Positions 5,560 through 61,336 of a stretch of DNA of 64,000 nt are shown here, piece by piece. Source of the stretch: an uncultured Gammaproteobacteria bacterium (GTDB lineage: Bacteria > Pseudomonadota > Gammaproteobacteria > SZUA-229); NCBI GenBank assembly GCA_963759005.1, contig CAVWXQ010000014.1, positions 23,655-87,654 on the forward strand, given 5' to 3'. The stretch's first letter is position 1, and every line of letters starts with the position of its first letter. The position numbers and the translations under genes were made by a program. The notes under the pieces were generated by a model, which searched no databases, was not told the origin of the DNA, and worked only from the letters and a program-made list of their open reading frames with translations.

Positions 5560-5570
5560 ATCCACATGTT

Positions 5571-12401: not shown

Positions 12402-13121
12402 CTACTCACTTACCGAGGTGGTGCTGAACAAATAGCCAAGCCAGGGTATATCCATCAACAGCGGGATACCCGCCCTGCCCTCGTTGCGAGTTTCGAGGAT
12501 CAGGCCACCGAGCACCACAGTCGCACCGCTCTGCACCACGACACTGCTGCTGATGCTGCGCTGTGAAATCGCCACATTGCCGCCGCCGCCGACAGCCGGC
12601 TCTGAACCGGGAAGGCTGACTTCCTGGCTGATTTCCATGGTGACCTGGCCGCCGGCGTTGATGCGCGGAGTGACGGACAACAAGGTGCCGGTGTCACGAA
12701 ACTGCACCTCAGAGACCACCGGGGCATCCGGGTTTGTGGTACTCTGGGAACTGCGCACGGTGACCGGTATCTGGTCACCCACGCGGATATTCGCGGTATG
12801 GTTGTCCAGCACCATGATCTGCGGCGCCGAGAGGAATTTGACATCGGTCTTACTGGCCAGCAGGTCAATAAACATCCTGGCATCATTGCTGCTCGAAAAC
12901 GTGGCCAGTGTCAGGCCATCACCACCAGCAGCGGTGGGCACCGGTGCGTTGAAGCCCAGACTGGTGTTGCCGCCGGAGAGGAACCAGCGCACGCCGTAAT
13001 CCAGCGCATTGGAAAGGGTCACCTCGGCGATGGTGGCCTCGATCAGCACCTGGCGAGGCTGCTCATCGAGCTGTTTAATGACGGCTTCGATGCCACGGTA
13101 ATCCCTGGGACTGGCCAGCAA
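12402..13121 (-). pseudogene. secretin (GspD/PilQ family) C-terminal domain fragment
   Basis: VLIEATIAEV, SAPQIMVLDNHTANIRVGDQIPV and IPLLMDIPWLGYLF match secretin C-domain motifs. Frame closed by tag/tga immediately upstream, so the N-terminal two-thirds are absent. Confidence 0.75.
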
Positions 13122-13127
13122 TCGTCA

Positions 13128-13476: not shown

Positions 13477-13530
13477 AAATGTTCTCTGATAGGAAATTAC
13501 CTCACTCCCTACCTGCTAACCACCTGCGCG

Positions 13531-13947: not shown

Positions 13948-14013
13948 GCAAGAATACCCGTAGCAAATAACAGGTGACAACATCAGTTATCTATGCACAA
14001 TTGATAGATACAG

Positions 14014-14263: not shown

Positions 14264-14289
14264 CTAGCACAATCGAAGCAATGCGCCAG

Positions 14290-21830: not shown

Positions 21831-21902
21831 CTACACACTAACCATTACCAACACCTTGTTATTCTGTGGATTGAATAACTACATTGAGGAATCTCTAATT
21901 AA

Positions 21903-23716: not shown

Positions 23717-24022
23717 TTATAACTCACCCGACTCGTCCACTTCAGTAATCCAGTACATCCCCTTACCTGTAAACGATATACCCGAACCACGAAGCTCATC
23801 CAGTAAAGTTTTCGCGCGGGCATCTTCCAGAATCACATCAACACGCACCTGAGGCACATAACCCACCACTTTATCCCGAGCCGATAAAAAAGCATCCTGC
23901 TTTAATTGCGAGCTATGCTCTTCGATATGACTGAACATAAAACTGTCCAGCTGCAGGCTACGCAAACAGTCAGCCAGTTCCTGTTGCAGTGATGTATGCA
24001 CCACGATGGATAATTTTTTCAT
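23717..24022 (-). CDS. DUF3240-like P-II-fold protein, typical 3' partner of HME-RND pumps
   Basis: About 100 aa. Position overlaps the RND stop by 4 nt. I recall this family as a small P-II-like protein downstream of czc/cus pumps. Confidence 0.5.
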   Translation of the reverse strand: MKKLSIVVHTSLQQELADCLRSLQLDSFMFSHIEEHSSQLKQDAFLSARDKVVGYVPQVRVDVILEDARAKTLLDELRGSGISFTGKGMYWITEVDESGEL

Positions 24023-27000
24023 GCTGAGACCTCCACTTTTTTCACCCGCATCTTTTTCTCTAATGCTTCTTCTACCCAGGCATAGAGTGCCGGCAGTAAA
24101 ATCAATGTCAGGATGGTTGAGGTAAACAGGCCGCCAATCACCACGACGGCGAGTGGCTGCTGCAGTTCAGAGCCGGGGCCGGTCGCTGTCAGCAGGGGCA
24201 ATAAACCAAAGCTGGCTATCATGGCTGTCATCAGTACCGGTCTTAATCGTCGTTCAGCGCCCCGTCTTACCGCTTGCTGAATACTTAAACCCCTTTGCCT
24301 TAGTTGATTGAAGTAACTCACCATCACCACACCATTGAGTACCGCAACACCAAACAGGGTAATAAAACCTACCGATGCCGGTACCGACAGATAAAGTCCG
24401 GAATAATACAAACTGACGACACCGCCAATCATAGCGAAAGGGATGTTCAGAATAATCACGCCTGCCTGTAACAGCGAACGGAAAGTGGTAAACAACATGA
24501 AGAAAATAAGCACTATGGCAACAGGTACCACCAGAGCCAGTCTGGTTGATGCACGCTGCTGGTTTTCGAACTGACCACCAAAGGTAACATAATAACCCGT
24601 AGGCAAGTCCACTTTTTCTTCTATCTTACGACGTACTTCCTCGACAAAACTGACCACATCGCGGGCCTCTACATTTGACTGGATAACCACCAGACGTTTG
24701 GCCGATTCACGTATAATCTGAACCGGTCCATCCACCACTGTCACTTCGGCCAGGTGTCCCAGAGACACTTTAGTACCATTGGGTAAACTCACCAGCATTT
24801 TTTTAATGGCTGCCGCTGAGCTGCGATCTTTTTCCTGATAGCGCACCAGGATGCCGACACGACGATTATTTTCCAGTAATTCGGTCACCACCTGGCCACC
24901 GACTGCGGTTTCTACTAACCTGTTAATGTCTTCAACATGGATGCCATAACCGGAAATCACGTCCTGATTGATGTCGATCTGTAAATATTTCTGCCCTGAA
25001 ATATCAGCACGAAACACGTCTACTGCACCCGTTATATTATTCACCAGTTGTTCAATTTCGATGGCTTTCTGCTCCAGTACAAACAGATCATCACCATAAA
25101 GTTTGATTGCCATGGCAGAACGCACACCGGTTAGCATTTCTGATACGCGCATATCGATTGGCTGACTGAAGGCGTAATCAACATTATCAAAAGGGGCTAA
25201 TTTTTCACGCAAATTTTCCTGGAACTGTTGCAATGAAATATTCCATTCTTCCTGTGGTTTTGTCACCAGAAAATTATCGGTCTGATTTAAGCCCATTGGA
25301 TCCATGCGTAATTCATCAGCGCCTGTTCGCGAGGTGACGCCAATCACTTCAGGCAGCTCCATCATGGCTTTTTGAATCGGTGCGTCCATTTCCAGCGATT
25401 TTTCCAGGGTGATACTGGGATCTTTTTCTAACAGGATAACGGTACTGCCCTCATCCATGATCGGCATAAATTCTTTACCGATATGAGGGAACAGGGTTGC
25501 TGTTGCAAACAGCGCCACCAGCGCTAACCCTACCGCCGTTTTTCTATAACGTAGCGCCCAGTTCATCGCCGGTAAATAAATGATTTTCAGCACTCGCATA
25601 AGACGACCATCTGTGTCTGCATTTTGGGCCTCGGCCAGCGCATTTTCGGCCTGCTTTTCATCGTCCTGTTTTTTCGCCTGTTCATTCGGTTGATTTTGGA
25701 CATGAAGTTTCATAAAGAAACTGGCCAGCACTGGAATCACGGTTAATGACATTATTAACGAACCAATCAGGGCAAAAGTAATGGTAATGGCCAGCGGCGA
25801 AAACATTTTCCCTTCCAGTCCGGTCAGGCTAAACAATGGCAGAAACACAGCCACAATAATCAGTATGCCGGAAATAACCGGCGACGATACTTCCAGCACC
25901 GCGCGATAAACAAGGTGCAATTTATTAACACCTGCAGGCGCTTTACTGAAATGGCTATGAATGTTCTCCACCACCACGACGGCGGCATCAACCAGAATGC
26001 CAATAGCGATTGCCAGCCCGCCTAGTGACATCAGGTTGGCAGATACATTGAACAGCTTCATCATAATGAAGGTAAACAACACGGTTAACGGCAAAATTAA
26101 TGCCACCGTTAACGCACTGCGGATATCACCCAGCATAATAATTAACACCAGCAATACCAGCACAACGGCTTCACCCAGTGCTTTTTCCACCGTCCATACT
26201 GCCTTGGTAATCAGCTCGGTTCGATCATAAAACGATTCGATGCTAACGCCTTCAGGCAAAATAGCTTTTAATGTTTCCAGTGCTTTTTTAGTTTCTGCTA
26301 CCGTCTGTAAACTGTTGGCGCCTTTACGCAACAGAACCAGTCCGGTGACGACTTCACCCTCGCCATCAGCAGTTACCGCGCCATAACGTGTCATACTGCC
26401 AACGCGCACCTCGGCTACATCACTAATATGTATCGGTTCACCATAAAGTGTGCGTACGGTTATGTTCTTAATGTCGTCCACGTTGTTTAATTTTCCGACC
26501 GTACGCACCAGTAATACTTCATCGTTCTGGTTGATGCGATCACCGCCAGCATTGCGGTTACTCTCCATCAGAGCATGCTCTATTTCGTCGATACTGATGC
26601 CGTGTTTAACCAGCGTTTTCGGTTTGATAACTACTTCATAGGTACGAACTTCACCGCCCAGTGAATTAACATCTGCCACCCCTTCTACTTTGCGCAGATG
26701 CGGACGGATGACCCAGTCCTGCAAACTGCGCAATTCCTGGTTGCTATAACTCTTGCCGCTATCATCGCCGCTGTTGGTGTCGTAGTTATGGCCGATAATG
26801 CGATACATAAATATCTCACCCAGTGGGGTGGTAATGGGAGCCAGACCACCTTCAATATCGGCCGGTAATGAATCCCAAACCTGGTTGAGTCGCTCTGTCA
26901 CCAGATTACGCGCCAGATAAATATCCATGTCATCTTCAAAGTCGACAACAATCACACTTAATGCATATTTTGTTGTTGATCTAAGTACGGTCTGTCCGGG

Positions 27001-27228
27001 AATGCCCTGCATTTCCATTTCAATCGGAAAGGTAATGCGCTGCTCAACTTCACTGGGTGACATACCGGGGGCCTTGATAATAATCTGCACCTGGGGCGCT
27101 GAAATATCCGGAAAAGCATCAATCGGTAAGGTTTTAAACGACCATAAACCGGCAGCAGAAATGCCCAGTGTGACTAACACAACCATCAGTCTCTGGATAA
27201 GAGAAAAACGTAAAATTGCAGCAATCAT
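24019..27228 (-). CDS. heavy-metal efflux RND permease (CzcA/CusA family)
   Basis: About 1070 aa with 12-TM RND architecture. N-terminus MIAAILRFSLIQRLMVV...DAFPDISAPQV is typical of HME-RND. Likely start is the ATG at 27226-27228, 1 nt after the OMF stop, with RBS ggagg. Confidence 0.9.
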   Translation of the reverse strand: MIAAILRFSLIQRLMVVLVTLGISAAGLWSFKTLPIDAFPDISAPQVQIIIKAPGMSPSEVEQRITFPIEMEMQGIPGQTVLRSTTKYALSVIVVDFEDDMDIYLARNLVTERLNQVWDSLPADIEGGLAPITTPLGEIFMYRIIGHNYDTNSGDDSGKSYSNQELRSLQDWVIRPHLRKVEGVADVNSLGGEVRTYEVVIKPKTLVKHGISIDEIEHALMESNRNAGGDRINQNDEVLLVRTVGKLNNVDDIKNITVRTLYGEPIHISDVAEVRVGSMTRYGAVTADGEGEVVTGLVLLRKGANSLQTVAETKKALETLKAILPEGVSIESFYDRTELITKAVWTVEKALGEAVVLVLLVLIIMLGDIRSALTVALILPLTVLFTFIMMKLFNVSANLMSLGGLAIAIGILVDAAVVVVENIHSHFSKAPAGVNKLHLVYRAVLEVSSPVISGILIIVAVFLPLFSLTGLEGKMFSPLAITITFALIGSLIMSLTVIPVLASFFMKLHVQNQPNEQAKKQDDEKQAENALAEAQNADTDGRLMRVLKIIYLPAMNWALRYRKTAVGLALVALFATATLFPHIGKEFMPIMDEGSTVILLEKDPSITLEKSLEMDAPIQKAMMELPEVIGVTSRTGADELRMDPMGLNQTDNFLVTKPQEEWNISLQQFQENLREKLAPFDNVDYAFSQPIDMRVSEMLTGVRSAMAIKLYGDDLFVLEQKAIEIEQLVNNITGAVDVFRADISGQKYLQIDINQDVISGYGIHVEDINRLVETAVGGQVVTELLENNRRVGILVRYQEKDRSSAAAIKKMLVSLPNGTKVSLGHLAEVTVVDGPVQIIRESAKRLVVIQSNVEARDVVSFVEEVRRKIEEKVDLPTGYYVTFGGQFENQQRASTRLALVVPVAIVLIFFMLFTTFRSLLQAGVIILNIPFAMIGGVVSLYYSGLYLSVPASVGFITLFGVAVLNGVVMVSYFNQLRQRGLSIQQAVRRGAERRLRPVLMTAMIASFGLLPLLTATGPGSELQQPLAVVVIGGLFTSTILTLILLPALYAWVEEALEKKMRVKKVEVSA

Positions 27229-27229
27229 T

Positions 27230-28573
27230 TTACACTCCTCCTTCGAGCAGGCTGACATTCAGTGTATCGGCATCCGATATCATTTGCCCGGCAAACAGCT
27301 TGACCTCCGCTAACTCCACCCATGCCTGATAGAGTAATTCCATATAAGTTAAGCGTGCTTCAAAATAGGTATTATTTGCATCTACCAGAGACAATATATT
27401 TAATTCGCCACTGCTAAATCCCTTGTTGGTTAAGTCGAGCATCTTCTTCGCTGGCTTAAGCACTTTTTGTTTATAGTCCCTGGCCTGTTCAACTACATGG
27501 TTCAAATGCGTAAAGCTTTTATTCAGATTAATTTTCAACTCACGTCGCAATAACTGTAACTCGATACGTTGCTGACTGGCTTTATAGGTGGCTTTGCTTG
27601 CTGCGGTGTTTTTACGGTCATTGATTGGAATTTGAACATTGAACATGATGGCGTAAACATCACCGCGTCCACTGAGAAAGGTATCTTTTGACCAGCTCAA
27701 AGCGATAGTCGGGTCGACCATCTGGCTACTGCGAGCAACATCTATTTCATGCTTCGCCGCCAGAACCTGCTGCTGCTGGCTGGAGAGCTGTGCATGATTA
27801 TCCTGTAATGAAATCAGATTATTAATATCGGGAATTTCTTCGATAGGCTGCAGCTCAGAAACTGTTGCCACACTGCCAATCTCCAGACCTAATAATTTGA
27901 CAAACTCATTCACCACTTCATTGTATTTACCTTCAGCGCTGCTTGCTGCCTGACGCGCTTCTTCCTGAATAATGGTCAGTCGCATTTTTTCCAGTGGTGT
28001 TAAATAACGCACAACAATGCCCGCTGAATTTTTCTTTGATTGACCACCCCACTCATTAGCCAGCTGAAGCTGTTTTTCAGCCAGCTTTAATTCTGACGAA
28101 ACAAGCTGTAACTGGTGATATATTTTCGTCACACGATTTTGCACCTGCAGCGTCTGATACTGGCGGGAAAACCGGGCCGCTTTCAGACTGGCCTCAGCAG
28201 CTGATGTCTGGTATTTGATACGTGAGATTGGGATGGGCTGGCTAATCGTAATATCAGTCAGATCATACCCGCCGGTTTCATCATCCTGCCCCAATTTATT
28301 ATCGATGCGAGCGCCTATGCTAGGTTCTGGCCATAAACTGGACAGGTTTATGTCCTCCTTGCGCGCACCAATTTCAGCCATCGCCTGTTTTAATTCTGGT
28401 GAGACAGACATTGCCTGCTCAACGCTAGATTGCAAGGTCCATTGCTGTGCAATGGACGGTGTACTCAGCAGCAGCATTATTATCAGTGCCAATAGCACTA
28501 TTAGTACAGCGGTGATTTTTGAAAATACGGCTTTTGTCGACTTAATGGTGGTAAGAACGGGGGTAATAAACAT
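27230..28573 (-). CDS. outer-membrane efflux factor (TolC/CzcC/CusC family)
   Basis: 447 aa with a signal/TM N-terminus. Coiled-coil-rich two-repeat OMF pattern. C-terminal ...LNILSLVDANNTYFEARLTYMELLYQAWVELAEVKL. Confidence 0.8.
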   Translation of the reverse strand: MFITPVLTTIKSTKAVFSKITAVLIVLLALIIMLLLSTPSIAQQWTLQSSVEQAMSVSPELKQAMAEIGARKEDINLSSLWPEPSIGARIDNKLGQDDETGGYDLTDITISQPIPISRIKYQTSAAEASLKAARFSRQYQTLQVQNRVTKIYHQLQLVSSELKLAEKQLQLANEWGGQSKKNSAGIVVRYLTPLEKMRLTIIQEEARQAASSAEGKYNEVVNEFVKLLGLEIGSVATVSELQPIEEIPDINNLISLQDNHAQLSSQQQQVLAAKHEIDVARSSQMVDPTIALSWSKDTFLSGRGDVYAIMFNVQIPINDRKNTAASKATYKASQQRIELQLLRRELKINLNKSFTHLNHVVEQARDYKQKVLKPAKKMLDLTNKGFSSGELNILSLVDANNTYFEARLTYMELLYQAWVELAEVKLFAGQMISDADTLNVSLLEGGV

Positions 28574-28707: not shown

Positions 28708-29055
28708 TTATTGAGGTGGCGCGCGCAGGGGCGGCGTGCCACGAAAAGGAATAATCGGTAAACGTGTCTGGCTTTCTCGCAAACGACCGATGAAGGTTCG
28801 ACACTGCACGGCTGCCAGAACAGCAATCAGCAGGAATACAGCCAGCATGCTTACACTGTTTTGTTTTACTTTCAGCACACTGTCCGGACTGACGATGATT
28901 TCATGACTACTATCATCGGGCATGAGGTGACTAGCAAAAGAACTTATGTCCACAGCAAAGCCATGCTCTACAGTTGCTGCAGTTTCCTGGGTATGAATAT
29001 GTAATTCGACGGAAGTCAGAAACAGCAACGCAGTGATCACATACATGATCAGCAT
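28708..29055 (-). CDS. small two-TM membrane protein with His cluster
   Basis: TM helices at both ends. HIHTQE...H...H in the loop. First gene of the pump operon by position. Confidence 0.3.
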   Translation of the reverse strand: MLIMYVITALLFLTSVELHIHTQETAATVEHGFAVDISSFASHLMPDDSSHEIIVSPDSVLKVKQNSVSMLAVFLLIAVLAAVQCRTFIGRLRESQTRLPIIPFRGTPPLRAPPQ

Positions 29056-29228: not shown

Positions 29229-29268
29229 AAACTAATCACGGCGGCTCTAATAGCCGCCGTATTAGTTT
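29229..29268. promoter_or_regulatory. long near-perfect palindrome in divergent promoter region
   Basis: aaactaatcacggcggct-ctaat-agccgccgtattagttt (17-bp arms, 1 bulge). Confidence 0.3.
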
Positions 29269-29382: not shown

Positions 29383-30130
29383 GTGTGTAGTTATATGACT
29401 AATGTAAGTTTTCAACAATACAAAGTATGGGATGTAGCAACCAGATTATTTCACTGGATTAATTTCATAACCATTATTTGCCTTATTTTTATGGGTTTAA
29501 TTATGTTGTTCAAGAAAGAACTCGGCATAACCAGCATTGAAGCTAAAGTGGGTTTAAAAGAAGTTCATGTCATTATAGGTTATGTCTTTGTATTAAATTT
29601 TGCCTGGCGAATCATCTGGGGTTTCATCGGAAACAAATATGCACGCTGGACTAACATTGTTCCGGGCAAAGGTTTTATTAGTCTTGTTCGTAATTACATT
29701 CGATTCTGTAAAAAGCGGCGACCCCGAACAATACATCGGCCACAACCCGCTGGGACGTCTGGCAATATTATTCATTCTTTTACTTATGTTTACCTCAGCC
29801 GTAACCGGTCTGGTGCGCGCCGGCACTGATATTTATTACCCGCCTTTCGGTTCGTTTGTTGCTGACTATATTGCGGAGCCCGGTATAGACCCGGACAGCA
29901 TAAAACCTTATATTGCGGAAGGCACGAATAAAGATAAGGCTGCCAGCTTAAAAGCGTTTAAAGATCCTTTTGGTCAAATCCACATCTATTGTGCATACGT
30001 ACTTATGTTTATGATCGTCCTGCACATTTTCGTTGTGGTGCGCACCGAGGTACGAGAAGGTGGCAGTTTGATCACCGCCATGTTTACTGGCAACAAAATA
30101 TTGGCAAAGAAACCGATTGATATAGATTGA
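29383..30130 (+). CDS. cytochrome b561 / Ni-Fe hydrogenase b-type cytochrome family, frameshifted near 29670
   Basis: RLFHWINFITIICLIFMGL (frame A). GHNPLGRLAILF and HIFVVVRTEV (frame B). The two ORFs 29383..29829 and 29600..30130 overlap. Confidence 0.6.
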
Positions 30131-30172
30131 GCAGCTCACTGCACCCTGAAACAGATTATATCGAGTAACTAT

Positions 30173-30202
30173 TATCCAAAAAAAAGCCCGCCAGTTGGCG
30201 GG
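30173..30202 (-). terminator. bidirectional rho-independent terminator between convergent cytochrome genes
   Basis: aaaaaaaa-gcccgcc-agtt-ggcgggc-ttaaacaaaaa. Strong T-run when read on the minus strand. Confidence 0.6.
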
Positions 30203-30224
30203 CTTAAACAAAAATGCAACTTTA

Positions 30225-32375
30225 TTATTGTAGATTTAACTGTCTGCGACCACGCGCCTGATAACTTACCGAGCCACTGGCTGATCCACCATCACCACTA
30301 CAGGTTAAGGTAAATGTTACCGGACCATTAATCACTATAGACTCAGAACCATTGGTCACTTTTAATCCAGACCAGTCACCGGAGGCAGAGCAGCTGGTGG
30401 CATCTGTTGATGACCAGCTTAATGTTATCGTATCACCACGAAATACTGACGCTGGACTTGCCGTCAGATTAACCGTCGGTACAATAACGGCTGTTGGTGC
30501 ATTTACTGTTACTGTCACGCTGGCACTGGCAATTCCGCCGTCACCGGTACAGCTAATGGTATAGCTGGTGGTTGCCGTCGGAGTAACCACTTCAGAACCA
30601 CTGGTAGCACGACTGCCGCTCCAGCCACCCGAAGCCGTACAGCTTATGGCATCACTTGAACTCCAGCTCAAGGTCGCTGACTGGCCCTGGTCAATAGTTA
30701 ATGGCGAGGCTAAAAGGGACACAACAGGTACAGGGAGCGTGCCACTAATAACATCATTAAGCACTGTTATTTGCGCACTGGCGATCTGCTCATGTTTCAA
30801 ACTTTGTGCATCATAAAGTGTTTTGAAAGTCTGCACCTGTTCCAGGTGGTTATCACGATATAGATCCTGTAAATAACCATATGCGATAGTCTGATAATTT
30901 ATAGACACGCTAACATTCAGATCACCGGCAACAGTAACAGGAATACGGTAAGTTATTTCATCACTTCCCTGATTAAAGTTGGCATCATCAAACGCCAGAC
31001 CGCGAACTGCAACATCCGATGGCACGGCAAGCTTGTCAAAACCTTCTGGCGTCAGCCTGTTATCTTTCAAATACTGTGCGCCACGCAACAGGGTAAAAGT
31101 CACATTACTATCGGAATCACCCATAATCGGCTCATAAATCTGCACCTGGTCAGCTGAAGTAACCAGATCGTAATGCGGTTCAAACACAGTATTGTCTGCG
31201 TCATTGTCTGCACCTACAATAGAACCATCTGCGTTTATCCGGCCTGATTCAAAAACAATATTATTGTTACTGTCAGTAACCTTAAAGTTGAGCCACATGC
31301 GCCGTGATGGATAACCTGTTGGCGTTTTATGGCCTGAGTTATTTTGCACTTTAACCTGGGCTTCCAGCACACCATTGTTCACCGAAGCCGATACAAAGGC
31401 TATGTTTACTGCGCTCTGCAACATGGCGCGGGCACGGTCAATACTTAAATCCATATTGGCACTGGTCACGTCCAGCTGCGCGGCATTATTGTTAAGCAAG
31501 GTCAGCATTGTGGTATTGGCCCCCACCAGCTGATGTTTGGCAAAGCCATCTTTAACACCGAGCCATCGTGGACGATTGGCTATTTTGGATGTTGTTTTCG
31601 GCATATGGCAATCCTGGCAGCTTTGCGGGTTGCTGCCAGCGTCATCAAAAATCGAATTCTGCCATTCTGTATAGGGCATCTGTTCGGGAAACTCTGTATC
31701 TGGTGTGGTGCTCACTACCAGGCCGTTTGCATCAACAAAAGGTGTTTTTAAATCATGGCAGGTCGCACAGACGGCTGAATCTGAAATATGTGCACTGTAT
31801 TCCGGGGTGTATCCGGTGTTATTAATCATTGGCTGGGCGGTGATGTTGCTATATTGCCCGTAGATTGTTTTCGTATCATTAATTGTGTAGTGACCTGATG
31901 CGCCAGCCGGTGTACCCAGGGTAGCATCATCTTTGATTTGATGACACACAGTACAGCTGACACCATTCATACCGGCATCATGCAGTTCATGATTAGTATC
32001 AAGGATGCCGTTGGGTCCAAACAGTGTGACATCGCCACCCTGTACTTTCGTGATTTCGTAGTTAGCCATTGGTGCATGACACTTGCTGCACTTATCATTT
32101 ATCAATGAAGATAGATGCGGATTACGTTCTAACTCAGTCGCTACCTTTGCACGCCAGAAAGGGTCCTTGGTCGCATTCGCCATCATCGATGTTCCCCAGT
32201 CCTCGACGATGGACACATTATCACCTGAAGTATCGGTCAAGCCATCATGGCACATGGTGCAGTTTCCTGAACCTGAAAAATGTGAGGTGGTGAAATTGTC
32301 ATTCTCTGCCTGCGCAGTGAAAGAAAAAAGAAAAAATAGGATAGTTACTGATAGTCGAAATACGTTTTTGCTCAT
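30225..32375 (-). CDS. secreted pentaheme c-type cytochrome with two C-terminal Ig-like repeats
   Basis: Signal peptide. Five CxxCH motifs (CTMCH, CSKCH, CTVCH, CATCH, CQDCH). About 55-aa repeat (LxASP...SATLSWSS...SCTASG.WSG...TYTISCTGDGG) present twice. Confidence 0.8.
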   Translation of the reverse strand: MSKNVFRLSVTILFFLFSFTAQAENDNFTTSHFSGSGNCTMCHDGLTDTSGDNVSIVEDWGTSMMANATKDPFWRAKVATELERNPHLSSLINDKCSKCHAPMANYEITKVQGGDVTLFGPNGILDTNHELHDAGMNGVSCTVCHQIKDDATLGTPAGASGHYTINDTKTIYGQYSNITAQPMINNTGYTPEYSAHISDSAVCATCHDLKTPFVDANGLVVSTTPDTEFPEQMPYTEWQNSIFDDAGSNPQSCQDCHMPKTTSKIANRPRWLGVKDGFAKHQLVGANTTMLTLLNNNAAQLDVTSANMDLSIDRARAMLQSAVNIAFVSASVNNGVLEAQVKVQNNSGHKTPTGYPSRRMWLNFKVTDSNNNIVFESGRINADGSIVGADNDADNTVFEPHYDLVTSADQVQIYEPIMGDSDSNVTFTLLRGAQYLKDNRLTPEGFDKLAVPSDVAVRGLAFDDANFNQGSDEITYRIPVTVAGDLNVSVSINYQTIAYGYLQDLYRDNHLEQVQTFKTLYDAQSLKHEQIASAQITVLNDVISGTLPVPVVSLLASPLTIDQGQSATLSWSSSDAISCTASGGWSGSRATSGSEVVTPTATTSYTISCTGDGGIASASVTVTVNAPTAVIVPTVNLTASPASVFRGDTITLSWSSTDATSCSASGDWSGLKVTNGSESIVINGPVTFTLTCSGDGGSASGSVSYQARGRRQLNLQ

Positions 32376-32697
32376 TTAAAGGCCTCCGGGCGTTCTTTAT
32401 TGTGCTTAATGTTTTGTTAGTACGGTGGCATTTATACTCCCATTGAAAATAAAACCACAGTAACTTGTTCGTTCATTTTCGTTCATTTTTTACAAGCGTA
32501 TTTTTATTATTTAAATCATTAATTTACAAATCTTTACAAACGGTTTTTAACGATGACCGGTGACACAAAACCGAGCTTTCCATTTTTAATATTAATTGTT
32601 ATTGCTGAGCCAAATATTTCATATTGATTTATGTCATTATATATAGCCGACAAACGGTGTATAAAACCACTTCTGTATTTTTACCGATTGAGCAAAA

Positions 32698-33124
32698 TAT
32701 GAGCGATTTAACTTTCCAGATGCTACTGCATTGTAATTACATAGACGACCAGAATACTATCGATCAGTTACATGTCGAACATTTAGTTAAAGACAACTGG
32801 CAGGAATTTGATATCAATACCTCCAGCCCTGGCTTCGATATTTTTATGTATGCTATTCTCACCTGTCAGCATATGTACTTTAGAAATAATGCTGCAGAAT
32901 ATGGTCTGGTTCTGGACTCAAGTGAAGGGCTATTAACAGTCATTGCTAACGAACACAGAAGCATTGAAACATTGAATGTCGAATTTAAAGGCAAACTGAA
33001 AAAAGGCGAGGCGACTGAAGACATCGTGAATTCTATTACTGCACGCATGGGCTTATGCCCGGTTTCCATCAACCTGAAGGATATATTAAACAATCATATA
33101 ACAGCGAGTTTTGAACCTGCCTGA
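32698..33124 (+). CDS. OsmC/Ohr-family protein (putative hydroperoxidase)
   Basis: ATG at 32698 (MSDLTFQ...). Paired Cys motifs AILTCQHMY and MGLCPVSINL resemble OsmC AACFSMA / AGCPVSQ. Confidence 0.5.
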
Positions 33125-33238
33125 CAGGAAATAAAAAGTCGGTTACAAAACCACTAAGTTAAGCGCAGGAAAACCAGGTCAGCAATAGTCACTGTATCTA
33201 TTTAGTGCTGCAGTCTCATGAGGGAATGCTTATACGAG

Positions 33239-33395
33239 CCCAGATATTTCATAGGAACGCTACAGCTTTAACTTAACATTATGATTGTATTGAGAAATAT
33301 TGGCATATTAGCAAAGCACACTATGTACCCGATAACGCTCGGCAATTGCTCCTGCATTGCCCTACTACCTGCCATCCATGGCAGTATATGCAGTT
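33239..33395 (+). mobile_element. MITE copy 3 (5' portion only, variant with internal insert)
   Basis: Left TIR cccagatatttcataggaacgc plus an internal segment identical to the insert in copy 2. The right end is missing. Confidence 0.5.
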
Positions 33396-33472
33396 GCTCG
33401 GGAATTATGGCTAGAACACATTACGCCCATAAATGGGCACAATGTTCACAACATATCTAGTGTAAGCCCCTA

Positions 33473-33958
33473 CTAAGATAAACTGAGTTTGATTGCATCA
33501 ACCAGATCATCACAGGCTTTGGCGCATGCATCGCACTCGATATGCTTCTCATGTTTTTTGCATTCTTTTGCACAATCCTGGCACACTTTGTCACATATTT
33601 GTGAGTACTCTTTAGTGTAACTGGAGTTCGATGCCACAAGATAGGCAAAACCACCACAAACTGACATCATTTCCTGCACCTTGCTCGCACAGTCAGCCAG
33701 TTCGGTATCACCCTCGGTAAAACTAACCATACAGTGTGCAACACAACGTCGCCCTTTGTCGAGGCAAGCATTAACTGCATCCATCACATCGGTTAACTGC
33801 GTTGCATGTTTGCTGTGATCGTGCTCTTTTGCGGCCGCCGATGCAGAACCTGCATAAGCCATGGTCGCAGCAGCACCCATCCCCAGCAATACATCTCTAC
33901 GACTGATGCCATTTTTTACCTGTTGCTGTTTTTCAGATACGGTTTCTTTTTCTGACAT
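33473..33958 (-). CDS. TAT-exported Cys-rich four-helix-bundle protein (Csp/DUF326-like copper storage)
   Basis: Twin-arginine signal SRRDVLLGMGAAATMAYAG. Many Cys in CxxxC-type spacing (CLDKGRRCVAHC, CDKVCQDCAKEC, CDACAKAC). Confidence 0.65.
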   Translation of the reverse strand: MSEKETVSEKQQQVKNGISRRDVLLGMGAAATMAYAGSASAAAKEHDHSKHATQLTDVMDAVNACLDKGRRCVAHCMVSFTEGDTELADCASKVQEMMSVCGGFAYLVASNSSYTKEYSQICDKVCQDCAKECKKHEKHIECDACAKACDDLVDAIKLSLS

Positions 33959-36152: not shown

Positions 36153-36467
36153 CTATTGATTAACTTTTAATTGTTGTGCCTTCTTTCCTCTGGCAACACC
36201 GATTAAACCGATTAACCCTGAACCAAAAAGCCATACGGCTGCAGGAACGGGAACAGCTGAAACCGATATATTGTCTAATTGTAAATAACTTCCGCTTGTC
36301 TCAGTCCATGATGCACTTAATACATTAGACCAATTTAAATTAAAGGTTTCCAAGCCTATAATACTATCAGTGCTTACAACAGTAGATAATAATGATCCTG
36401 AATTTGTTACAGCATTAATACTTATGTTTTGGCTAACACCTGAATTAAATACGTCGCCAATCTATAG
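36153..36467 (-). pseudogene. PEP-CTERM sorting-signal protein remnant
   Basis: C-terminus VPVPAAVWLFGSGLIGLIGVARGKKA (PEP-like motif, TM, basic tail). Only about 100 codons open and no proper start. Confidence 0.5.
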
Positions 36468-46527: not shown

Positions 46528-48260
46528 TTAGTGACTATGTGCGCTAGCTGCCCCTGCTGGTACACGTATATCTTCAACCATATGTTGAATGTGATCAGGT
46601 GGTGCTGGTGTCATCTTCGAAACAACATAGGCCACACTGAAGTTTACAACCGCGCCCACTGCACCAAACGCATTTGGCTCAATGCCCATAAACCAGTTTG
46701 GTTTCATGTCACCTAAGAAGGCGGTACCGGGAACAAACATAATACCTTTGTGTTGGAACACATAAAGTAGCGTGACAGAAATACCAGCAATCATACCTGC
46801 AATGGCGCCTTCCTTGTTCATATTCTTACTGAAAATACCCATCATCAGTACAGGGAAGATGGAAGATGCAGCAAGTCCGAATGCCAGTGCCACCGTTCCC
46901 GCAGCAAAGTCAGGCGGATTAAATCCCAGGTAACCAGCTAAGCCGATAGCACCTGCCATCGCTAACCGACTGGCGAACAACTCCTGCTTCTCGTTAATAT
47001 CCGGTCTAAACACCCCTTTCAATAAATCATGTGAAATGGATGAGGCTATCGCCAGCAACAAACCTGCGGCGGTAGATAGCGCAGCAGCAAGACCACCTGC
47101 AGCAACCAGGGCAATTACCCAGTTAGGTAAACCAGCTATCTCAGGATTTGCCAGCACCATGATATCTCTATCAACTTTCACCATTTCGTTAGTGACTGGG
47201 TCTGCAGAATAATTCAACCAGACCATCGCCATTTTTGTCTTCAAATTTCAACAGACCTGTTTTCTCCCAGTTTTTAAACCAGCTTGGACGGTCGTCATAA
47301 ACAAGATTTACACCAGGCTCGTGGCTGAATGGTTTCGTGTAAGTTTAAACGAGCCATCGCAGCTACAGCAGGTGCTGTTGTATAAAGAATAGTGATAAAG
47401 ATTAGTGCCCAACCAGCAGACACACGCGCATCACTCACTTTTGTCACTGTGAAGAAACGGATGATTACGTGGGGCAGACCCGCAGTACCAATCATTAGAG
47501 ACAAAGTATAAACAAAGGTGTTTAAGGTACCCAGTCTCGTAAGCGTCGTGTACTCAGCAAAACCGAGTTCCGTCACCACCTGATCCAGTCGATCCAGCAG
47601 ATAGGTTTCTGTACCCGCCATCATACTACCCAAACCTAACTGTGGAATTGGATTACCGGTCAGGTTCAGCGAGATAAAAATTGCAGGAATGGTATAAGCA
47701 AAAATAAGAACACAGTATTGTGCAATCTGGGTATAGGTAATACCTTTCATGCCGCCTACAACCGCGTAGATAAATACGATGCCCATACCAATTGACAATC
47801 CTAATTCATAACTCACTTCCAGGAATCGGGAGAATGCCACGCCGATACCTTTCATCTGACCGATTACATAGGTCACCGATGCAACAATCAAACAGATTAC
47901 TGCAACAATACGTGCAGTTTTTGAGTAATAACGATCGCCAATAAACTCTGGCACGGTGAACTTTCCGTACTTGCGCAGGTAAGGGGCAAGCAACATCGCC
48001 AACAACACGTAGCCACCCGTCCAACCCATAAGAAAGACAGAACCGCCGTAACCAAAGAACGCAATCAAACCCGCCATCGAAATAAACGATGCTGCTGACA
48101 TCCAGTCGGCGGCGGTCGCCATGCCGTTAGCAATCGGATGAATACCACCGCCAGCGATATAGAATTCACTGGTTGTTCCAGCACGCGCCCAGAAAGCGAT
48201 GCCGATATAGATCGAAAATGTTATACCTACGACAATAAATGTTAATGTTTGTAGTTCCAT
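46528..48260 (-). pseudogene. actP: actP-type cation/acetate symporter (SSF family), at least 2 frameshifts near 47240-47340
   Basis: The N-terminal 321 aa and C-terminal 238 aa are each SSF-like (...GLPHVIIRFFTV...). The linker HEPGVNLVYDDRPSWFKNWEKTGLLKFEDKNGDGL is readable only in a third frame. Confidence 0.8.
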
Positions 48261-55467: not shown

Positions 55468-56904
55468 TTAAAGGAAAGCACCTGTATTATCGATAGCGTT
55501 TAGTTGCAAACCATCTGGACCAGTTTCACCTGTATCAGGTATCCATGGTGCAAGACATTGACGGTCTTTAACACAAGGATCGGTTAACGATTTTAAGAAC
55601 TCAACCAGATCGATCACATCATCATCGGTATAGGTAACATTTTGATGAACCCCTGCAACATTGTTAGCACGATTAGCTTCAAGCTGGTCCAGCGCAAACT
55701 GAGTATTTGTTTGCATATTTGAAAACTGTATATTTGCATTTGAATCTAATTGTGAATAATCGTAATTAGCAATAGCCTGTGCCGGATTCAACATGTGACG
55801 AACCATGTTCTCCAATGTGGTGTAAGCACCGGCATGTCCCCATGGGCCGGTAACTTCCACATTAAGTAATGTCGGTGTTCTGAAACGGTACATATCAGCC
55901 GCAACTTTACTTTCTCTGAAACGACCAAAATCATCATTGATCAATGTGCCATTATCATCACCTTTACCACGACCAATCTGGGGCGATGCCAGTACATGAT
56001 ATTGTTCATCGGTAAAGAAATCACCAGCGTGGCATGAGCTACAGTTCGCACCACCATCTTCAACTTTGCCAAAAAACATCATCGCACCACGTTTCGCAGA
56101 TTCACTAATCGCTGTAGCATTACCTTCTACATATGCTTTCCACGGAGAGTTTACAAAAACCTGTGAACGCTCATATTCGCCGATTGCTTCTGCAATGAGT
56201 GTATAAGTGATGGTAGTGGGTACACCAAAGGCAGTCTCGAATTCGGCAAGCCAATCAATATCTCCGGCCAATTTCAAAGCCAGTGCATCACGAATTTTAT
56301 CGTTAGTATTTTGAGCTGGCAGACTAAAACCATGCATTTCTTCAGGTGAGGTTACCGGAAATCGGGATTGCGCTGCCGCAAGCGTATCAGTTGCCGCATT
56401 CGGATCGGCAACATCAAAGGCTGAATCCGGTGTACGAATACCTATCCCATCATCACCATTTGCGCCCTCTGTTTTACCCAGGCTTTCCACCCTGCCATCA
56501 TGAAACAGCGCCTGATCCCACATTGCAATGTTAAACGTAGTCGGTGCATTTCTTGGCACGGTTGGACCACCATCAAATTCACCACCCACCGCATTAATAT
56601 CATGGAAACGTCCTGGACCTAGCAGGTCAGGATTTTCCGCACCAACACCAATCGATAATGATAATCCATCACCACCGCCTAATGATGGATGATGACAGGT
56701 CACGCATGCAGAGTCATCATCGCCACCCAGACCTTTAGTGAAAAACAGTTTCTTACCCAGCTGTGCTTTTGCGTCTGTAATAGCAGGAAGAACTCTGCCT
56801 GTGGCTGGATCGCCGGTTAATCCATATTCCGTTACCATCTGTAACAACTCAGCATTACTAACAGTAGCCTCAGGATTACTATTATCACATGCCGCCAGTA
56901 ACAA
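55468..56904 (-). CDS. MbnH/MauG-like di-heme cytochrome c peroxidase family enzyme (paralog 1), probable N-terminal frameshift
   Basis: CVTCHHP and CSSCHAG heme sites. FRTPTLLNVEVTGPWGHAG. Tail LKSLTDPCVKDRQC. The signal peptide MDRRHLLTLSIRIKL lies in another frame, followed by LLLAAC in this frame. Confidence 0.75.
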   Translation of the reverse strand: MLLAACDNSNPEATVSNAELLQMVTEYGLTGDPATGRVLPAITDAKAQLGKKLFFTKGLGGDDDSACVTCHHPSLGGGDGLSLSIGVGAENPDLLGPGRFHDINAVGGEFDGGPTVPRNAPTTFNIAMWDQALFHDGRVESLGKTEGANGDDGIGIRTPDSAFDVADPNAATDTLAAAQSRFPVTSPEEMHGFSLPAQNTNDKIRDALALKLAGDIDWLAEFETAFGVPTTITYTLIAEAIGEYERSQVFVNSPWKAYVEGNATAISESAKRGAMMFFGKVEDGGANCSSCHAGDFFTDEQYHVLASPQIGRGKGDDNGTLINDDFGRFRESKVAADMYRFRTPTLLNVEVTGPWGHAGAYTTLENMVRHMLNPAQAIANYDYSQLDSNANIQFSNMQTNTQFALDQLEANRANNVAGVHQNVTYTDDDVIDLVEFLKSLTDPCVKDRQCLAPWIPDTGETGPDGLQLNAIDNTGAFL

Positions 56905-58181: not shown

Positions 58182-59070
58182 AAGTTATTCCTATGCTAAA
58201 AATGGTACCTTCTGTATGCTCACCATACAGTGCATCGATAGCAGGAAATTTAACTGTGGCATTCAGTAATAAATCCTGCACCATGGTGTAAATGAATCCT
58301 GGCGCAATAAAAATAATGGTGCCACCTGAATCCGGGTCATCCAGGCCGGAAAATGTGTCCCGCTTACTGCTTCTGCCTTCCAGACCTAAATAATATGCCA
58401 CACTGTGTTGCGAAGCATATTGCGCAGTTGCATTATATACCAGAGCATCTCCTGCCTGAAACTCCTGGTAACCTTCTGTTGCGACATGATAGGTCGCGCT
58501 GGTATAAAACAGATACGGATAATTATAATTGGCATACCAGGCACCTGCATTTAAAACTGTTGCGCCCTGGCCGGCCTGCACATCAAAATCCAGCGGAACA
58601 CCATTACTGTCAGTTTCTTCAGATGCAGTAGGTAATTTTAAACCGCCCAGAAAACCATACATATGTGTTTGCAAAAACTCTTTTTCCTGCATAAAGTTTT
58701 TAACTGTAATGGTGACATCACCCAGTGCCGTGACTTCTTCCTGAGTTAAATTAAATGATTCCAGCTGACGGTTAACATACGGAACATTCACCCCCAACAT
58801 TAATCGCGTGCTCGGTGCATAGGCCAGGTTTAATGAGACCCTGTTTTCATCAATGACTTTTTTATTAAAACCTTCACGCCCCAGTTCTTCACTGCGTGAC
58901 AAATAGTTTAATGACAGTCGCAGACGATTTTCATACGGTTTTTCTGCACCCATCAATGTCTGCGTGGGGTCACCAACCATACAGGTAGAGCAGGCCATTG
59001 CCACAGGTGCAGCTAAAAAACAGCATAAAAACAGAAGCGAATTTCTTACCATATTACAACCTAGGGACAC
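58162..59070 (-). CDS. outer-membrane beta-barrel protein (possibly transporter / MetA-pathway-like family)
   Basis: Signal peptide ...AAPVAMA. Beta-strand-rich. Overlaps neighbours by 10-20 nt, which suggests coupling. Confidence 0.35.
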   Translation of the reverse strand: MSLGCNMVRNSLLFLCCFLAAPVAMACSTCMVGDPTQTLMGAEKPYENRLRLSLNYLSRSEELGREGFNKKVIDENRVSLNLAYAPSTRLMLGVNVPYVNRQLESFNLTQEEVTALGDVTITVKNFMQEKEFLQTHMYGFLGGLKLPTASEETDSNGVPLDFDVQAGQGATVLNAGAWYANYNYPYLFYTSATYHVATEGYQEFQAGDALVYNATAQYASQHSVAYYLGLEGRSSKRDTFSGLDDPDSGGTIIFIAPGFIYTMVQDLLLNATVKFPAIDALYGEHTEGTIFSIGITYDFQVH

Positions 59071-60371
59071 ATTGCATGTTTCTGGATATTGCCGAAGGGA
59101 TCAGAGAGTTCATCCCGACAAACGAAGTCCCAGTCCGTCAAACTCTTGAAGAACTCGATGAGGTCAAGACGTTCATCAGCCGTGATGACGAAACCATTAA
59201 TAAAACCGCTCGTATTATTTGGACTCAGAGCACCATCACCCGCATTAGGATCAGGCGGTAAAATCAATCGTCCTCCCCGCGCATAGTGATCAATAACTTC
59301 ATCTAATGTTGCGATACTGCCATCGTGCATATAGGGCGCTGTCAGCTCGATATTTCTTAACGTCGGCGCACGGAACTTTCCTTCATCTTCAGGCAACAGG
59401 GTAAATTCCCTCAGGCCATGATTATTTTCTGGGTATAACCCATCTCCGATATCATCACCATTGCCATCAATATTATATAAAGCATTATTATGGAAATTGT
59501 TATGAGTGAATGTAGAACCCTCATGATCTACCGAATCACTGAAGTTGAATCCACCATGACAGTGAAAACATTCCAGTCTTTCACTAAAGAATAATTCCTT
59601 GCCTCGCTTCGCAGCATCAGACATGGTATTTGCTTCACCACGATTATCCTTATCGAATTCTGAGTCTCCGGAAATCATAATACTGCCAAACGCTGCAAAT
59701 GCCTTGACCACCGTCGACAGGGTTATCGGTTCGATTTCATCCGGGAAAGCATCAGCAAACATCTGCGGGTAGTCTGGTGCATTACCCACAAACATTGTGC
59801 CGGCGTAGTCAGCGTTTGAGGGAGACTTCAACCTGCCGAGGATCTCATCAACATGCCCTGCCCAGCCAAGTTCTATCGGATCTTCATTCAATACCACTGC
59901 CAGCGCCTGGTCATGCAGGTTCGCGATCTGGGGATTCGCCCAGTTCATCGTGCTGTTGTAAACCACATTGGTCATACTCATCGCGTTGCGCGCATGCACA
60001 TCAGCCTGCGAACCTACCGATACCGTCAGACCATCGGTGAATGCCTTTTCCTGTAGATGGCAGTCAGCACAAGATTGCGTCTGGTTGAATGACATATTGC
60101 GATCATAAAACAGCAGGTGACCCAGCTCGACCTTCTCCATGCTTAACGGGTTTTCTTCCGATTCTCTCGGTAGCGGAAAACCGCAGGGTAGCTCCACTGG
60201 CGCTCCGGAGCCACATTCACCATACAGCGCACTGGAAACAACTGGTGATTCCAGACCAGGTACCGGTGTTTCTGTATCAGACCCAGAGCAACTCGCCAGC
60301 AAGAAGCTGGCGATGATGCTTACAGGTAATATGGTTAAAGCTTTAGACGTTACAACTTGCATAATAATCAC
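59061..60371 (-). CDS. MbnH-like di-heme cytochrome c peroxidase family enzyme (paralog 2)
   Basis: CADCHLQ and CFHCHGG. FRAPTLRNIELTAPYMHDGS. Tail FKSLTDWDFVCRDE. Lipobox LASC. Confidence 0.8.
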   Translation of the reverse strand: MIIMQVVTSKALTILPVSIIASFLLASCSGSDTETPVPGLESPVVSSALYGECGSGAPVELPCGFPLPRESEENPLSMEKVELGHLLFYDRNMSFNQTQSCADCHLQEKAFTDGLTVSVGSQADVHARNAMSMTNVVYNSTMNWANPQIANLHDQALAVVLNEDPIELGWAGHVDEILGRLKSPSNADYAGTMFVGNAPDYPQMFADAFPDEIEPITLSTVVKAFAAFGSIMISGDSEFDKDNRGEANTMSDAAKRGKELFFSERLECFHCHGGFNFSDSVDHEGSTFTHNNFHNNALYNIDGNGDDIGDGLYPENNHGLREFTLLPEDEGKFRAPTLRNIELTAPYMHDGSIATLDEVIDHYARGGRLILPPDPNAGDGALSPNNTSGFINGFVITADERLDLIEFFKSLTDWDFVCRDELSDPFGNIQKHAMCP

Positions 60372-60412: not shown

Positions 60413-61336
60413 TCACTGTTTGCTGAACAATCTCTGGCCAGCGGTATATGTTGAAGCTACACCTGTCGCACTGCGGCCGTATGTGTAATCCAGACCGAGG
60501 CGCGGCATGATCTCCTCACAGTCATCATCATCAATAAATGACATGCAACCAGGTTTAGCACCATGATTAGTAGTCACATCATTACCCTCAAAGACACGTG
60601 CCGGATCAACTGCAATCACATCATTCTCAACATCAAAGTTAGCGATACATACTTCGAATGTGTTTGGCACGGTACAGGCTGAATCTGGTGGTGCTGTATT
60701 AGATGCACCCGGGCAGCCCTGCGCACCAAGATGTAAGACGAATGGGTTTGCAACACCGGTCGGATCACCTACACCATCTATGCGGATATACTTGTAACCG
60801 ATCTTCCAGGCCCAAAACATGCTTGAATCATTCAATGGAGACTCTACGGCATTTACATCGAGGTGGTTTTTATCTTCAGGCACACCCACGGTAAAACAGA
60901 CTTCAGCATCAGCTAAATCGACAGTATCAGGTACAGTGACCTTACCAGCCATCACTTTATTTGTTTCAGCAGTACCTGTGGCACAACCATCTTCAAAATC
61001 CAGTAAGGTAACATTATCTCTCTGCCAGACACCATCCTGAGTCAGCTCAATAGCATGATCATCACCGGTTAATGCATCATGTATATGCGCATTATGCACA
61101 TACATTCTGAAATCATTCACTTTATAATCATTACCGCCAGTGCCTACACCGGTATGTGTTTGTCCACAGGTAAAGTCCTGTCCATTTACCTGGGCAGCAA
61201 AACTAATTGCTACATCTTCAGCAAGGTCTGGTGCTGGTGCTGGTGCTAGTGCCACATCATCATTTGAACATGCAGTTAGCGCTATCGAAGAAGCGATTAC
61301 TAACGTTAAAGGTAACTGGTTATTACAAAATTTCAT
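60413..61336 (-). CDS. MbnP-like Cys-rich periplasmic lipoprotein (partner of MbnH-like enzyme)
   Basis: Lipobox LTAC. Eight further Cys and conserved Trp. Sits immediately 5' of the di-heme enzyme, which is the mbnP-mbnH order as I remember it. Confidence 0.5.
   Translation of the reverse strand: MKFCNNQLPLTLVIASSIALTACSNDDVALAPAPAPDLAEDVAISFAAQVNGQDFTCGQTHTGVGTGGNDYKVNDFRMYVHNAHIHDALTGDDHAIELTQDGVWQRDNVTLLDFEDGCATGTAETNKVMAGKVTVPDTVDLADAEVCFTVGVPEDKNHLDVNAVESPLNDSSMFWAWKIGYKYIRIDGVGDPTGVANPFVLHLGAQGCPGASNTAPPDSACTVPNTFEVCIANFDVENDVIAVDPARVFEGNDVTTNHGAKPGCMSFIDDDDCEEIMPRLGLDYTYGRSATGVASTYTAGQRLFSKQ

Follow-up and report, generated by a model that had tools for sequence, protein, structure and literature searches.

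An exported pentahaem cytochrome of predicted c552/ExtKL fold and its convergent neighbour, a cytochrome b561 gene with a private extra base, in an uncultured gammaproteobacterium

A 64,000-nucleotide stretch of DNA from an uncultured Gammaproteobacteria bacterium of lineage SZUA-229 (GenBank assembly GCA_963759005.1, contig CAVWXQ010000014.1, positions 23,655 to 87,654), hereafter called the window, encodes two cytochromes whose genes face each other tail to tail: a membrane cytochrome b561 and a c-type cytochrome with five haem-binding motifs. An earlier note on this DNA had proposed that the two products together form a conduit carrying electrons from quinol to the extracytoplasmic space. 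Our analyses indicate that the genes are probably two separate units, one for an exported pentahaem redox protein of the c552/ExtKL fold and one for an ordinary b561 that carries an insertion private to this genome, and that they do not constitute a conserved module.

The pentahaem gene is intact. The earlier note had described its product as a secreted five-haem c-type cytochrome of about 700 aa with a roughly 300-aa non-haem region and two immunoglobulin (Ig)-like repeats of 55 aa, and this description holds except for the size of the repeats. The 716-aa protein has a signal peptide that ends in a signal-peptidase-I site (AQA), and its translation contains no lipobox cysteine. Its five CxxCH motifs are invariant in 49 close homologues and 98–100% conserved in 127 distant representatives, a comparison set spanning 37–56% identity in which exactly five such motifs occur in 122 of the 127 sequences. 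About 290 residues without a haem motif follow the last CxxCH. The two C-terminal repeats share 48% identity over 58 aa (E 3e-18) and were modelled by AlphaFold as beta-sandwiches of ~75 aa each (residues ~551–625 and ~634–708) with a predicted local distance difference test (pLDDT) score of ~90; a profile search matched them to a solved "Immunoglobulin-like domain protein", 9ncf (E 7e-5). Among close homologues the number of these modules varies from 0 to ~4. The Ig-module-bearing homologues (P0003-P0120) share a short conserved C-terminal tail, (A/T)RGRRWLxL(Q/R), which contains no hydrophobic helix; we know of no sorting signal that matches this tail.

Across the homologues the conserved unit comprises residues ~25–540, and ~79 positions are at least 85% conserved in the 127 representatives. 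Conservation reaches at least 97% at G348, H349, K350, P352, R358, R359, H401, K437, D438, N439, R440, D464 and D472. These residues include a polar cluster in the beta-sandwich, with basic residues among it, formed by G348-H349-K350-x-P352, R358-R359, K437-D438-N439-R440, D464 and D472. In c552, the pentahaem cytochrome of Thermochromatium tepidum, the stretch that aligns with the GHKxPxxxPxR loop is QPHAMPTGAPFR. Sequence conservation also nominates H196, H281, H349, H401, M65 and M183 as candidate distal haem ligands, that is, six candidates for five haems. Such conservation would fit an enzyme or a dedicated binding site better than a protein that simply conducts electrons.

The structural model, built on 49 homologues, has a mean pLDDT of 74; confidence is high for the beta-rich half and for both C-terminal modules, and low for parts of the haem domain. 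A Foldseek search against the PDB gave one meaningful match, the T. tepidum c552 structure 5ZE8 (E 1.9e-12). The other matches listed were non-cytochrome proteins, mostly beta-sandwich or Ig-like domains, and no MtrC/OmcA-type structure was among the fold matches listed. At the sequence level the similarity to 5ZE8 is marginal (phmmer E 0.023, profile E 0.11), the aligned stretch being H..PTG.P.R only. The best curated sequence model is ExtKL (NCBIfam NF040886), with 39.4 bits and E 2.8e-10 over residues 37–380, against a cutoff of 250. The modelled core (residues ~24–545) thus adopts the c552, or ExtKL/MccSep, fold. MccSep (ExtKL) of Geobacter sulfurreducens is a multihaem selenoprotein that was recently shown to be a polysulfide reductase; the residues that define it are a haem-ligating cysteine (C239) and, provided by the Ig-like domain, a selenocysteine or cysteine (U325) (bioRxiv 10.1101/2025.11.18.688581). 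Neither residue occurs in the window protein: its residues 1–545 contain no cysteine beyond the ten that bind haem, its gene has no in-frame UGA, and no further cysteine column is at least 85% conserved in the 127 representatives. Since these residues are missing and the score falls short of the cutoff, the pentahaem protein is a relative of MccSep by fold and not a member of its family.

Two other assignments were rejected. The NrfA (PF02335) or HAO-type assignment gave 19.7 bits against a threshold of 24.1 and covered a single haem motif (residues 236–263), and the protein has five CxxCH and no CxxCK motifs; it is therefore not an enzyme of the nitrite or hydroxylamine type, an alternative that the earlier note had raised. 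The decahaem MtrC/OmcA/MtrF family (PF22113) gave 28.5 bits against a cutoff of 30 over residues 24–148, for a protein with five haems and no lipobox. The family to which the protein does belong is very large. An exhaustive search of cluster representatives recovered 3326 clusters at E<=1e-3, of which 686 passed E<=1e-30, and a word-indexed search recovered more than 3700 homologues, nearly all of them unnamed or "hypothetical". The protein is a member of the known c552/ExtKL fold and belongs to a large branch, so far uncharacterised, in which the catalytic residues of MccSep are missing and surface-sorting tags are frequent.

The evidence for surface sorting comes from a scan of 63 long representatives of the family. 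A C-terminal sorting domain of the type IX secretion system (T9SS) was found in 17 of them, an additional class-I cytochrome c domain in 12, and a fusion to a pyrroloquinoline quinone (PQQ)-type glucose/sorbosone dehydrogenase in two; further family members carry GlyGly-CTERM-like or dockerin-like C-terminal tails. In aerobic Bacteroidota many members are T9SS-exported, and we found nothing in the literature on T9SS-linked multihaem cytochromes. These tags, read from the sequences, point to display of many family members at or beyond the outer membrane. Individual architectures vary considerably. P0122 (1142 aa) has a discoidin domain and a PQQ-type glucose/sorbosone dehydrogenase fused to its pentahaem core, with a GlyGly-CTERM-like tail at its C-terminus. 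In the syntenic metagenome contig L001 (relatives of the locus are numbered L001 onwards), a tandem pentahaem paralogue (8474-10396) has thrombospondin-type/dockerin-like calcium repeats in place of the Ig modules.

The b561 gene, as assembled, is a pseudogene split over two overlapping open reading frames (ORFs), 29383..29829 in frame 1 and 29600..30130 in frame 2, which match PF01292 separately (profile positions 1–109 and 80–179). Deletion of one base yields a protein of 244 aa that matches the whole profile (positions 1–179) with 103.9 bits against a cutoff of 30.1 and has four predicted helices. All four conserved histidines are present across the two frames (FHW, EVHV, GHNPLG and VLHIF), in agreement with the earlier note's identification of a membrane di-haem b-type cytochrome, and the product is predicted to be an otherwise ordinary protein of the PF01292 kind. 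The likely start is the ATG at 29395, as in the relatives, and not the GTG at 29383; an AGGTG lies 9 nt upstream of this ATG. The repaired protein is 95% identical to an intact metagenome protein (P0269), and its 120 best homologues are 241–254 aa long, one truncated entry of 212 aa excepted. The assignments as a Ni/Fe-hydrogenase cytochrome b subunit (TIGR02125, 68.8 bits against an equivalog cutoff of 121.5) and as a formate dehydrogenase cytochrome b subunit (TIGR01583, 25.2 bits against 115.85) were rejected, and no hydrogenase or formate dehydrogenase family was matched among the window ORFs scanned.

The earlier note had recognised the single frame slip but had placed it at 29665-29675, and the extra base lies ~30 nt further downstream, at 29703-29705. 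Its position was given by DNA alignment with L001, in which b561 is intact at 244 aa, and by a 12-way DNA alignment in which all 11 relatives (81–95% nucleotide identity) have one base fewer at this site. The window reads cgATTctg where the relatives read cg-TTctg, cg-CTctg or cg-ATctg, with no homopolymer. The ratio of nonsynonymous to synonymous substitution rates (dN/dS) of the repaired gene is 0.12–0.20 against eight relatives, and such low values imply purifying selection until very recently. Together with the absence of the insertion from all 11 relatives, this suggests that the lesion is a recent mutation private to this genome, or else an assembly error; it is not a fixed frameshift of the kind considered in the earlier note. 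If the extra base is real, the b561 product would end at 29829; it would keep only helices one and two, with just two of its four haem-binding histidines, and would be dead. A +1 slip on an A5 run 7 nt downstream of the insertion could in principle restore the frame. The window contains a second frameshifted gene, for a sodium/solute symporter of the VC_2705 family (46528-48260, minus strand), whose halves lie in different frames (47295..48260, profile 2–305; 46528..47244, profile 339–547). This second split gene makes a sequencing error plausible for b561 too.

Between the two stop codons lies a GC-rich hairpin with a 9-bp stem (-23.6 kcal/mol, z -3.5; none of 200 shuffled sequences folds as well), which is conserved in three relatives, L085, L086 and L091. 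A T-tract, TTTTTTGG (TTTTTT), comes after the stem on the minus strand, and the plus strand continues with TTAAAC; the terminator scan lists the minus strand only. Because the T-tract is found on one strand, the hairpin has the features of a canonical intrinsic terminator for the pentahaem gene alone, and for b561 it would be weak at best. The earlier note's hairpin shared by both genes is therefore retained in position, with a span of 30184-30205, but its action appears one-sided. The best sigma-70-like site, found by a consensus scan, sits in the intergenic region common to the pentahaem gene and the divergent OsmC-like gene. On the other side of the locus, the divergent region between b561 and the gene for a small protein with two transmembrane segments (2-TM) contains a perfect 9-bp inverted repeat, ACGGCGGCT-ctaat-AGCCGCCGT (29238-29260), which is kept in L085 and not in L001 or L091 and could be a terminator-like element or an operator.

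We surveyed the pairing of the two genes from both sides. On the pentahaem side, 84 loci (981 kb) were searched by tblastn with seven window proteins and with a hidden Markov model of the b561 subfamily. A b561 gene was found in two of them, L001 and L017, both with pentahaem genes 84–87% identical to that of the window, and no Pfam family recurred among the 128 genes immediately flanking pentahaem homologues. Starting from b561, we surveyed six contigs and 80 metagenome loci. Five of the ~80 loci (L085, L086, L091, L093 and L095) contained a pentahaem homologue, in each case beside a b561 at least 84% identical to that of the window, and none was found beside b561 genes below ~84% identity. 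In b561 relatives of 72–86% identity, the co-directional downstream gene encodes a monohaem cytochrome c of ~155 aa, which the window lacks, and more distant relatives have yet other genes downstream. The ~155-aa protein, found after b561 in L087, L095, L097, L100, L102 and L105, is exported and has one CHVCH motif (LYPTCHVCH); it is a likely true redox partner for this b561 subfamily. Near the pentahaem and b561 genes there is no gene for a porin or a periplasmic multihaem carrier, and the window's only other CxxCH ORFs, 23–27 kb away, encode two MauG/MbnH-like dihaem proteins. The b561 and pentahaem genes are thus probably neighbours by recent descent within a shallow clade (synonymous divergence, dS, up to ~0.45), and not a conserved module.

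Table 1. Features of the b561–pentahaem locus and its neighbours (window coordinates)
Feature	Position	Strand	Basis and remarks
DUF3240 gene	23717..24022	-	DUF3240 hit
CusA/CzcA heavy-metal resistance-nodulation-division (RND) pump	24019..27258	-	TIGR00914, 1053 bits vs cutoff 701; ACR_tran hit
Outer-membrane efflux protein (OEP)	27230..28573	-	OEP hit
Small 2-TM protein	28708..29055	-	divergent from b561
Cytochrome b561 / HyaC-like di-haem cytochrome b gene	29395..30130	+	PF01292; split by 1-nt insertion
Single extra base, +1 shift of b561 frame	29703..29705	+	one base fewer in all 11 relatives aligned
GC-rich hairpin AAGCCCGCC-aguu-GGCGGGCUU	30184..30205		between both stop codons; fold energy, terminator scan
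Secreted pentahaem c-type cytochrome, 716 aa	30225..32375	-	intact; c552/ExtKL ("PHC") fold, by model
Conserved C-terminal tail ARGRRQLNLQ	30225..30251	-	after Ig-like module 2; stop codon included
Ig-like module 2, residues ~630-708	30252..30488	-	repeat comparison, model
Ig-like (PKD-like) module 1, residues ~547-625	30501..30737	-	two cysteines; pLDDT ~90
Non-haem beta-sandwich domain, residues ~301-545	30741..31475	-	conserved polar residues; beta strands 323 to 540 (model)
GHKTPTGYPSRR loop, residues 348-359	31299..31334	-	most conserved non-haem motif of the family
Five-haem domain, residues ~24-300	31476..32306	-	CxxCH, first Cys at 39, 96, 141, 203, 253
Sec-type signal peptide, residues 1-23	32307..32375	-	MSKNVFRLSVTILFFLFSFTAQA followed by EN, cleavage after AQA; pattern kept in homologues
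Putative sigma-70-like site, TTTATA-18-TATAAT	32636..32665	-	10/12, consensus scan only; upstream of pentahaem gene
OsmC-like protein	32699..33124	+	weak OsmC hit, E 0.0016
Csp1-family copper storage protein, exported by twin-arginine translocation (Tat)	33473..33958	-	TIGR04401, 110 bits vs cutoff 100

The neighbours of the two cytochrome genes include several metal genes. The order DUF3240, CusA/CzcA, OEP and 2-TM is also found in L001 and L091, the OsmC-like and Csp1 genes adjoin the pentahaem gene in L001, L085 and L086, and in the shallow clade a cluster of Csp1, OsmC-like, pentahaem (one or more copies), b561 and CusA/OEP genes is kept in L001, L085, L086 and L091. In the window the pump and OEP genes of the RND operon (23717-28573, minus strand) overlap, and a DUF3240/P-II-like gene lies downstream of them; a membrane-fusion (CusB-like) gene is missing from this operon and present in its Thiorhodococcus minor counterpart. 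Further along the window, an MbnH family di-haem enzyme (59061..60371, minus strand; 414 bits against a cutoff of 363) adjoins an MbnP family copper-binding protein (60413..61336, minus strand; 236 bits against 140), the two forming a copper-acquisition pair, and a second MauG-like dihaem protein is encoded at 55468..56904. Among distant pentahaem loci, metal genes are nearby in L022, with a Csp gene 3.5 kb away, and in L023 of T. minor, with a convergent OEP-CusB-RND operon. With a Csp1 store and a CusA/CzcA pump as conserved neighbours, a metal, perhaps copper, would be the first substrate candidate in the window's lineage. We found nothing in the literature on a link between Csp1, multihaem cytochromes and b561.

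In the mechanism that we propose, the N-terminal five-haem domain would pack on the beta-sandwich, with the conserved loop (GHKxP...RR, H401 and KDNR) inserted towards the haems, as the model suggests. The protein would work beyond the cytoplasmic membrane and most likely be exposed on, or outside, the outer membrane. It would relay electrons between donors in the periplasm or outer membrane and an extracytoplasmic substrate, which may bind in a haem pocket that the conserved basic loop covers. The hairpin would end its transcript. Several points weigh against this picture of two unrelated units, one of them surface-displayed. The pLDDT is below 50 at residues 224–285 of the haem domain, and haems are absent from the model, so that the ligands are candidates only. 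The window protein has no recognised sorting signal, just the Ig modules and the RGRRxLxL tail, and about half of the family is untagged and could be periplasmic, as MccSep is. The function of this branch is read by analogy, no member of it having been studied. The pairing with b561 has persisted across a dS of ~0.45, which makes some functional tie between the two proteins possible. Finally, the metal neighbourhood is kept in the shallow clade only, and two of ~75 distant loci are barely above chance.

We also considered that b561 might oxidise quinol and pass the electrons to the secreted pentahaem cytochrome as a dedicated conduit, the frameshift being an assembly error or bypassed. In favour of this, the two genes are adjacent, with the same convergent layout and the same hairpin, in the window and in seven contigs (L001, L017, L085, L086, L091, L093 and L095); moreover, b561 is intact in all relatives and under purifying selection, the split symporter gene makes a sequencing error plausible, and slippage on the A5 run could in principle rescue the frame. 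However, the two genes are convergent and not co-transcribed, 82 of the 84 pentahaem loci and all b561 loci below ~84% identity lack the pairing, and in the relatives the co-directional partner of b561 is the monohaem cytochrome c. No porin or periplasmic carrier is found nearby, and a four-helix cytochrome b has no obvious reach to a protein outside the outer membrane. With b561 also broken as assembled, the conduit of the earlier note is in our view unlikely. Less probable still is that the pentahaem protein is a periplasmic sulfur-compound reductase working like MccSep, the Geobacter polysulfide reductase. ExtKL is its best-scoring curated model, the domain plan is shared, relatives are common in sulfur-oxidising Gammaproteobacteria and Campylobacterota, and the conserved basic residues could bind an anion. 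Yet the score of 39 bits is far under the 250-bit cutoff, C239 and U325 are missing along with any cysteine in residues 1–545 other than the ten haem-binding ones and any in-frame UGA, and many family members are exported by the T9SS in aerobic Bacteroidota.

Another possibility would be that the protein serves copper handling in this lineage, for example as a cupric reductase at the cell surface that supplies copper for uptake and storage. The cluster conserved in four relatives speaks for such a role, as do MbnH/MbnP and SCO1 elsewhere in the window, the Csp gene or heavy-metal efflux RND operon near the homologues in L022 and L023, and the occurrence of pentahaem homologues in Methylomonas, Methylicorpusculum and Methylocucumis. 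A functional analogy can also be drawn with the surface c553o cytochromes of Methylococcus capsulatus. However, outside the shallow clade the association extends to those two of ~75 loci, most family members have unrelated neighbours, and SCO1 lies in a GC-rich, possibly foreign part of the window. The c553o proteins are said to carry eight haems (reportedly eight or nine, in proteins of ~120 kDa, according to Bergmann et al. 1999), against exactly five CxxCH motifs in 122 of our 127 representatives, and are likened to the window protein by architecture and copper link only. A copper-related role is therefore a tentative lead for the window's lineage, with the odds clearly against it, and not a property of the pentahaem family. 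A broader version, which we regard as speculative and unlikely, would see the branch as widespread extracellular oxidoreductases in which a His-Lys/Arg-rich loop replaces the Cys/Sec of MccSep in acting on an extracellular substrate, and which in the window's lineage were recruited to take up or detoxify copper alongside Csp1 and the CusA-type pump. Such enzymes may be exported through the T9SS, rhombosortase-type sorting and other routes in Bacteroidota, Ignavibacteriota, Acidobacteriota, Chloroflexota and Gammaproteobacteria. Our preferred reading is still that of two separate units, an exported pentahaem redox protein and an ordinary b561.

Other features of the window were recorded in passing. 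Its first ~13 kb (1-14000) has a G+C content of 59–68% against 39–48% in the rest, and where the two parts meet, only the C-terminal domain of a secretin gene is left (12402..13121). Genes for SCO1/SenC, a SurA-like peptidyl-prolyl isomerase and a beta-propeller protein lie on the GC-rich side. The pattern suggests a chimeric contig join or a foreign island. A repeat resembling a miniature inverted-repeat transposable element (MITE), with terminal inverted repeats of ~25 nt (CCCGGATATTTCATAGGAACGC ... GCATTCCTATGAAATATCCGGG), occurs in four copies that are 78–95% alike, at 14021-14266 (plus strand), 21900-22321 (minus), 33237-33408 (plus) and 40019-40223 (plus). One truncated copy lies between the OsmC-like gene and csp, and the same terminal sequence is found in L001 (~10400-10720) between the pentahaem paralogue and b561. 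Rfam gave no match anywhere in the window, the MITE-like repeat included. Two paralogues on the plus strand, 33994-34380 and 38992-39501, have a 300-nt direct repeat of 83% identity in common. They read as small periplasmic CpxP/Spy-like proteins, although they matched no Pfam or NCBIfam model, and they flank a ~3-kb stretch (35.1–38.1 kb) without a long ORF, in which a 66-aa ORF (36153..36353) has a PEP-CTERM/VPLPA-CTERM sorting tail. DegP and a small heat-shock protein are also encoded further off in the window.

As the b561–pentahaem locus is probably not a system, it matters little on its own, and it is the pentahaem family, rather than the locus, that deserves follow-up. This family is very large, strongly conserved and never studied, and it is often surface-tagged in phyla not known for extracellular electron transfer. 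A function, if assigned, would give an annotation to thousands of multihaem proteins now called "hypothetical" in genomes from sediments and symbionts, and might link haem-based extracellular redox chemistry to copper homeostasis.

Comparison with known systems places the two cytochromes differently. The repaired b561 matches the full profile of the HyaC/FdnI-type prokaryotic cytochrome b561 (PF01292), with its frame broken in this genome. For the pentahaem protein, the likeness to the c553o family is one of working only, by description, in that both combine multiple haems with PKD or Ig-like domains and have a copper link. The c553o proteins of M. capsulatus Bath (MCA0421 and MCA0423) are multihaem proteins with PKD domains that are surface-located and copper-repressed, and MCA0421 contributes to extracellular electron transfer (PMC4831470, PMC4257694, PMC6281684); they have been described as restricted to M. 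capsulatus (PMC517821).

Closer likenesses are found among proteins that unite five haems with an Ig-like domain, an architecture known from c552 and the cable-bacteria PHC family (PMC11976967) and from PtdA of marine Alphaproteobacteria (bioRxiv 10.1101/2023.11.21.568154). The cable-bacteria PHCs (sPHC/lPHC, Gsu2801) and PtdA likewise have a pentahaem domain and a beta-sandwich, and are likened here to the window protein by their described architecture; by structure prediction they are relatives of c552 and ExtKL, and their function is unknown (PMC11976967; bioRxiv 10.1101/2023.11.21.568154). PtdA is encoded in an operon with a porin, a tetrahaem and a decahaem cytochrome, and the lPHCs have truncated haemoglobin domains, whereas the window protein has neither. 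The T. tepidum c552, which has no assigned function (PMC11976967), measures 385 aa against ~520 aa for the core of the window protein, which adds two Ig modules; in the WxxSM(M/H)A motif the window protein has Met and c552 has His. ExtKL/MccSep shares with the window protein five CxxCH motifs and a C-terminal Ig-like domain, which in MccSep gives a loop to the haem pocket. MccSep is a periplasmic tetramer, whereas many members of the window protein's family carry surface-sorting tags.

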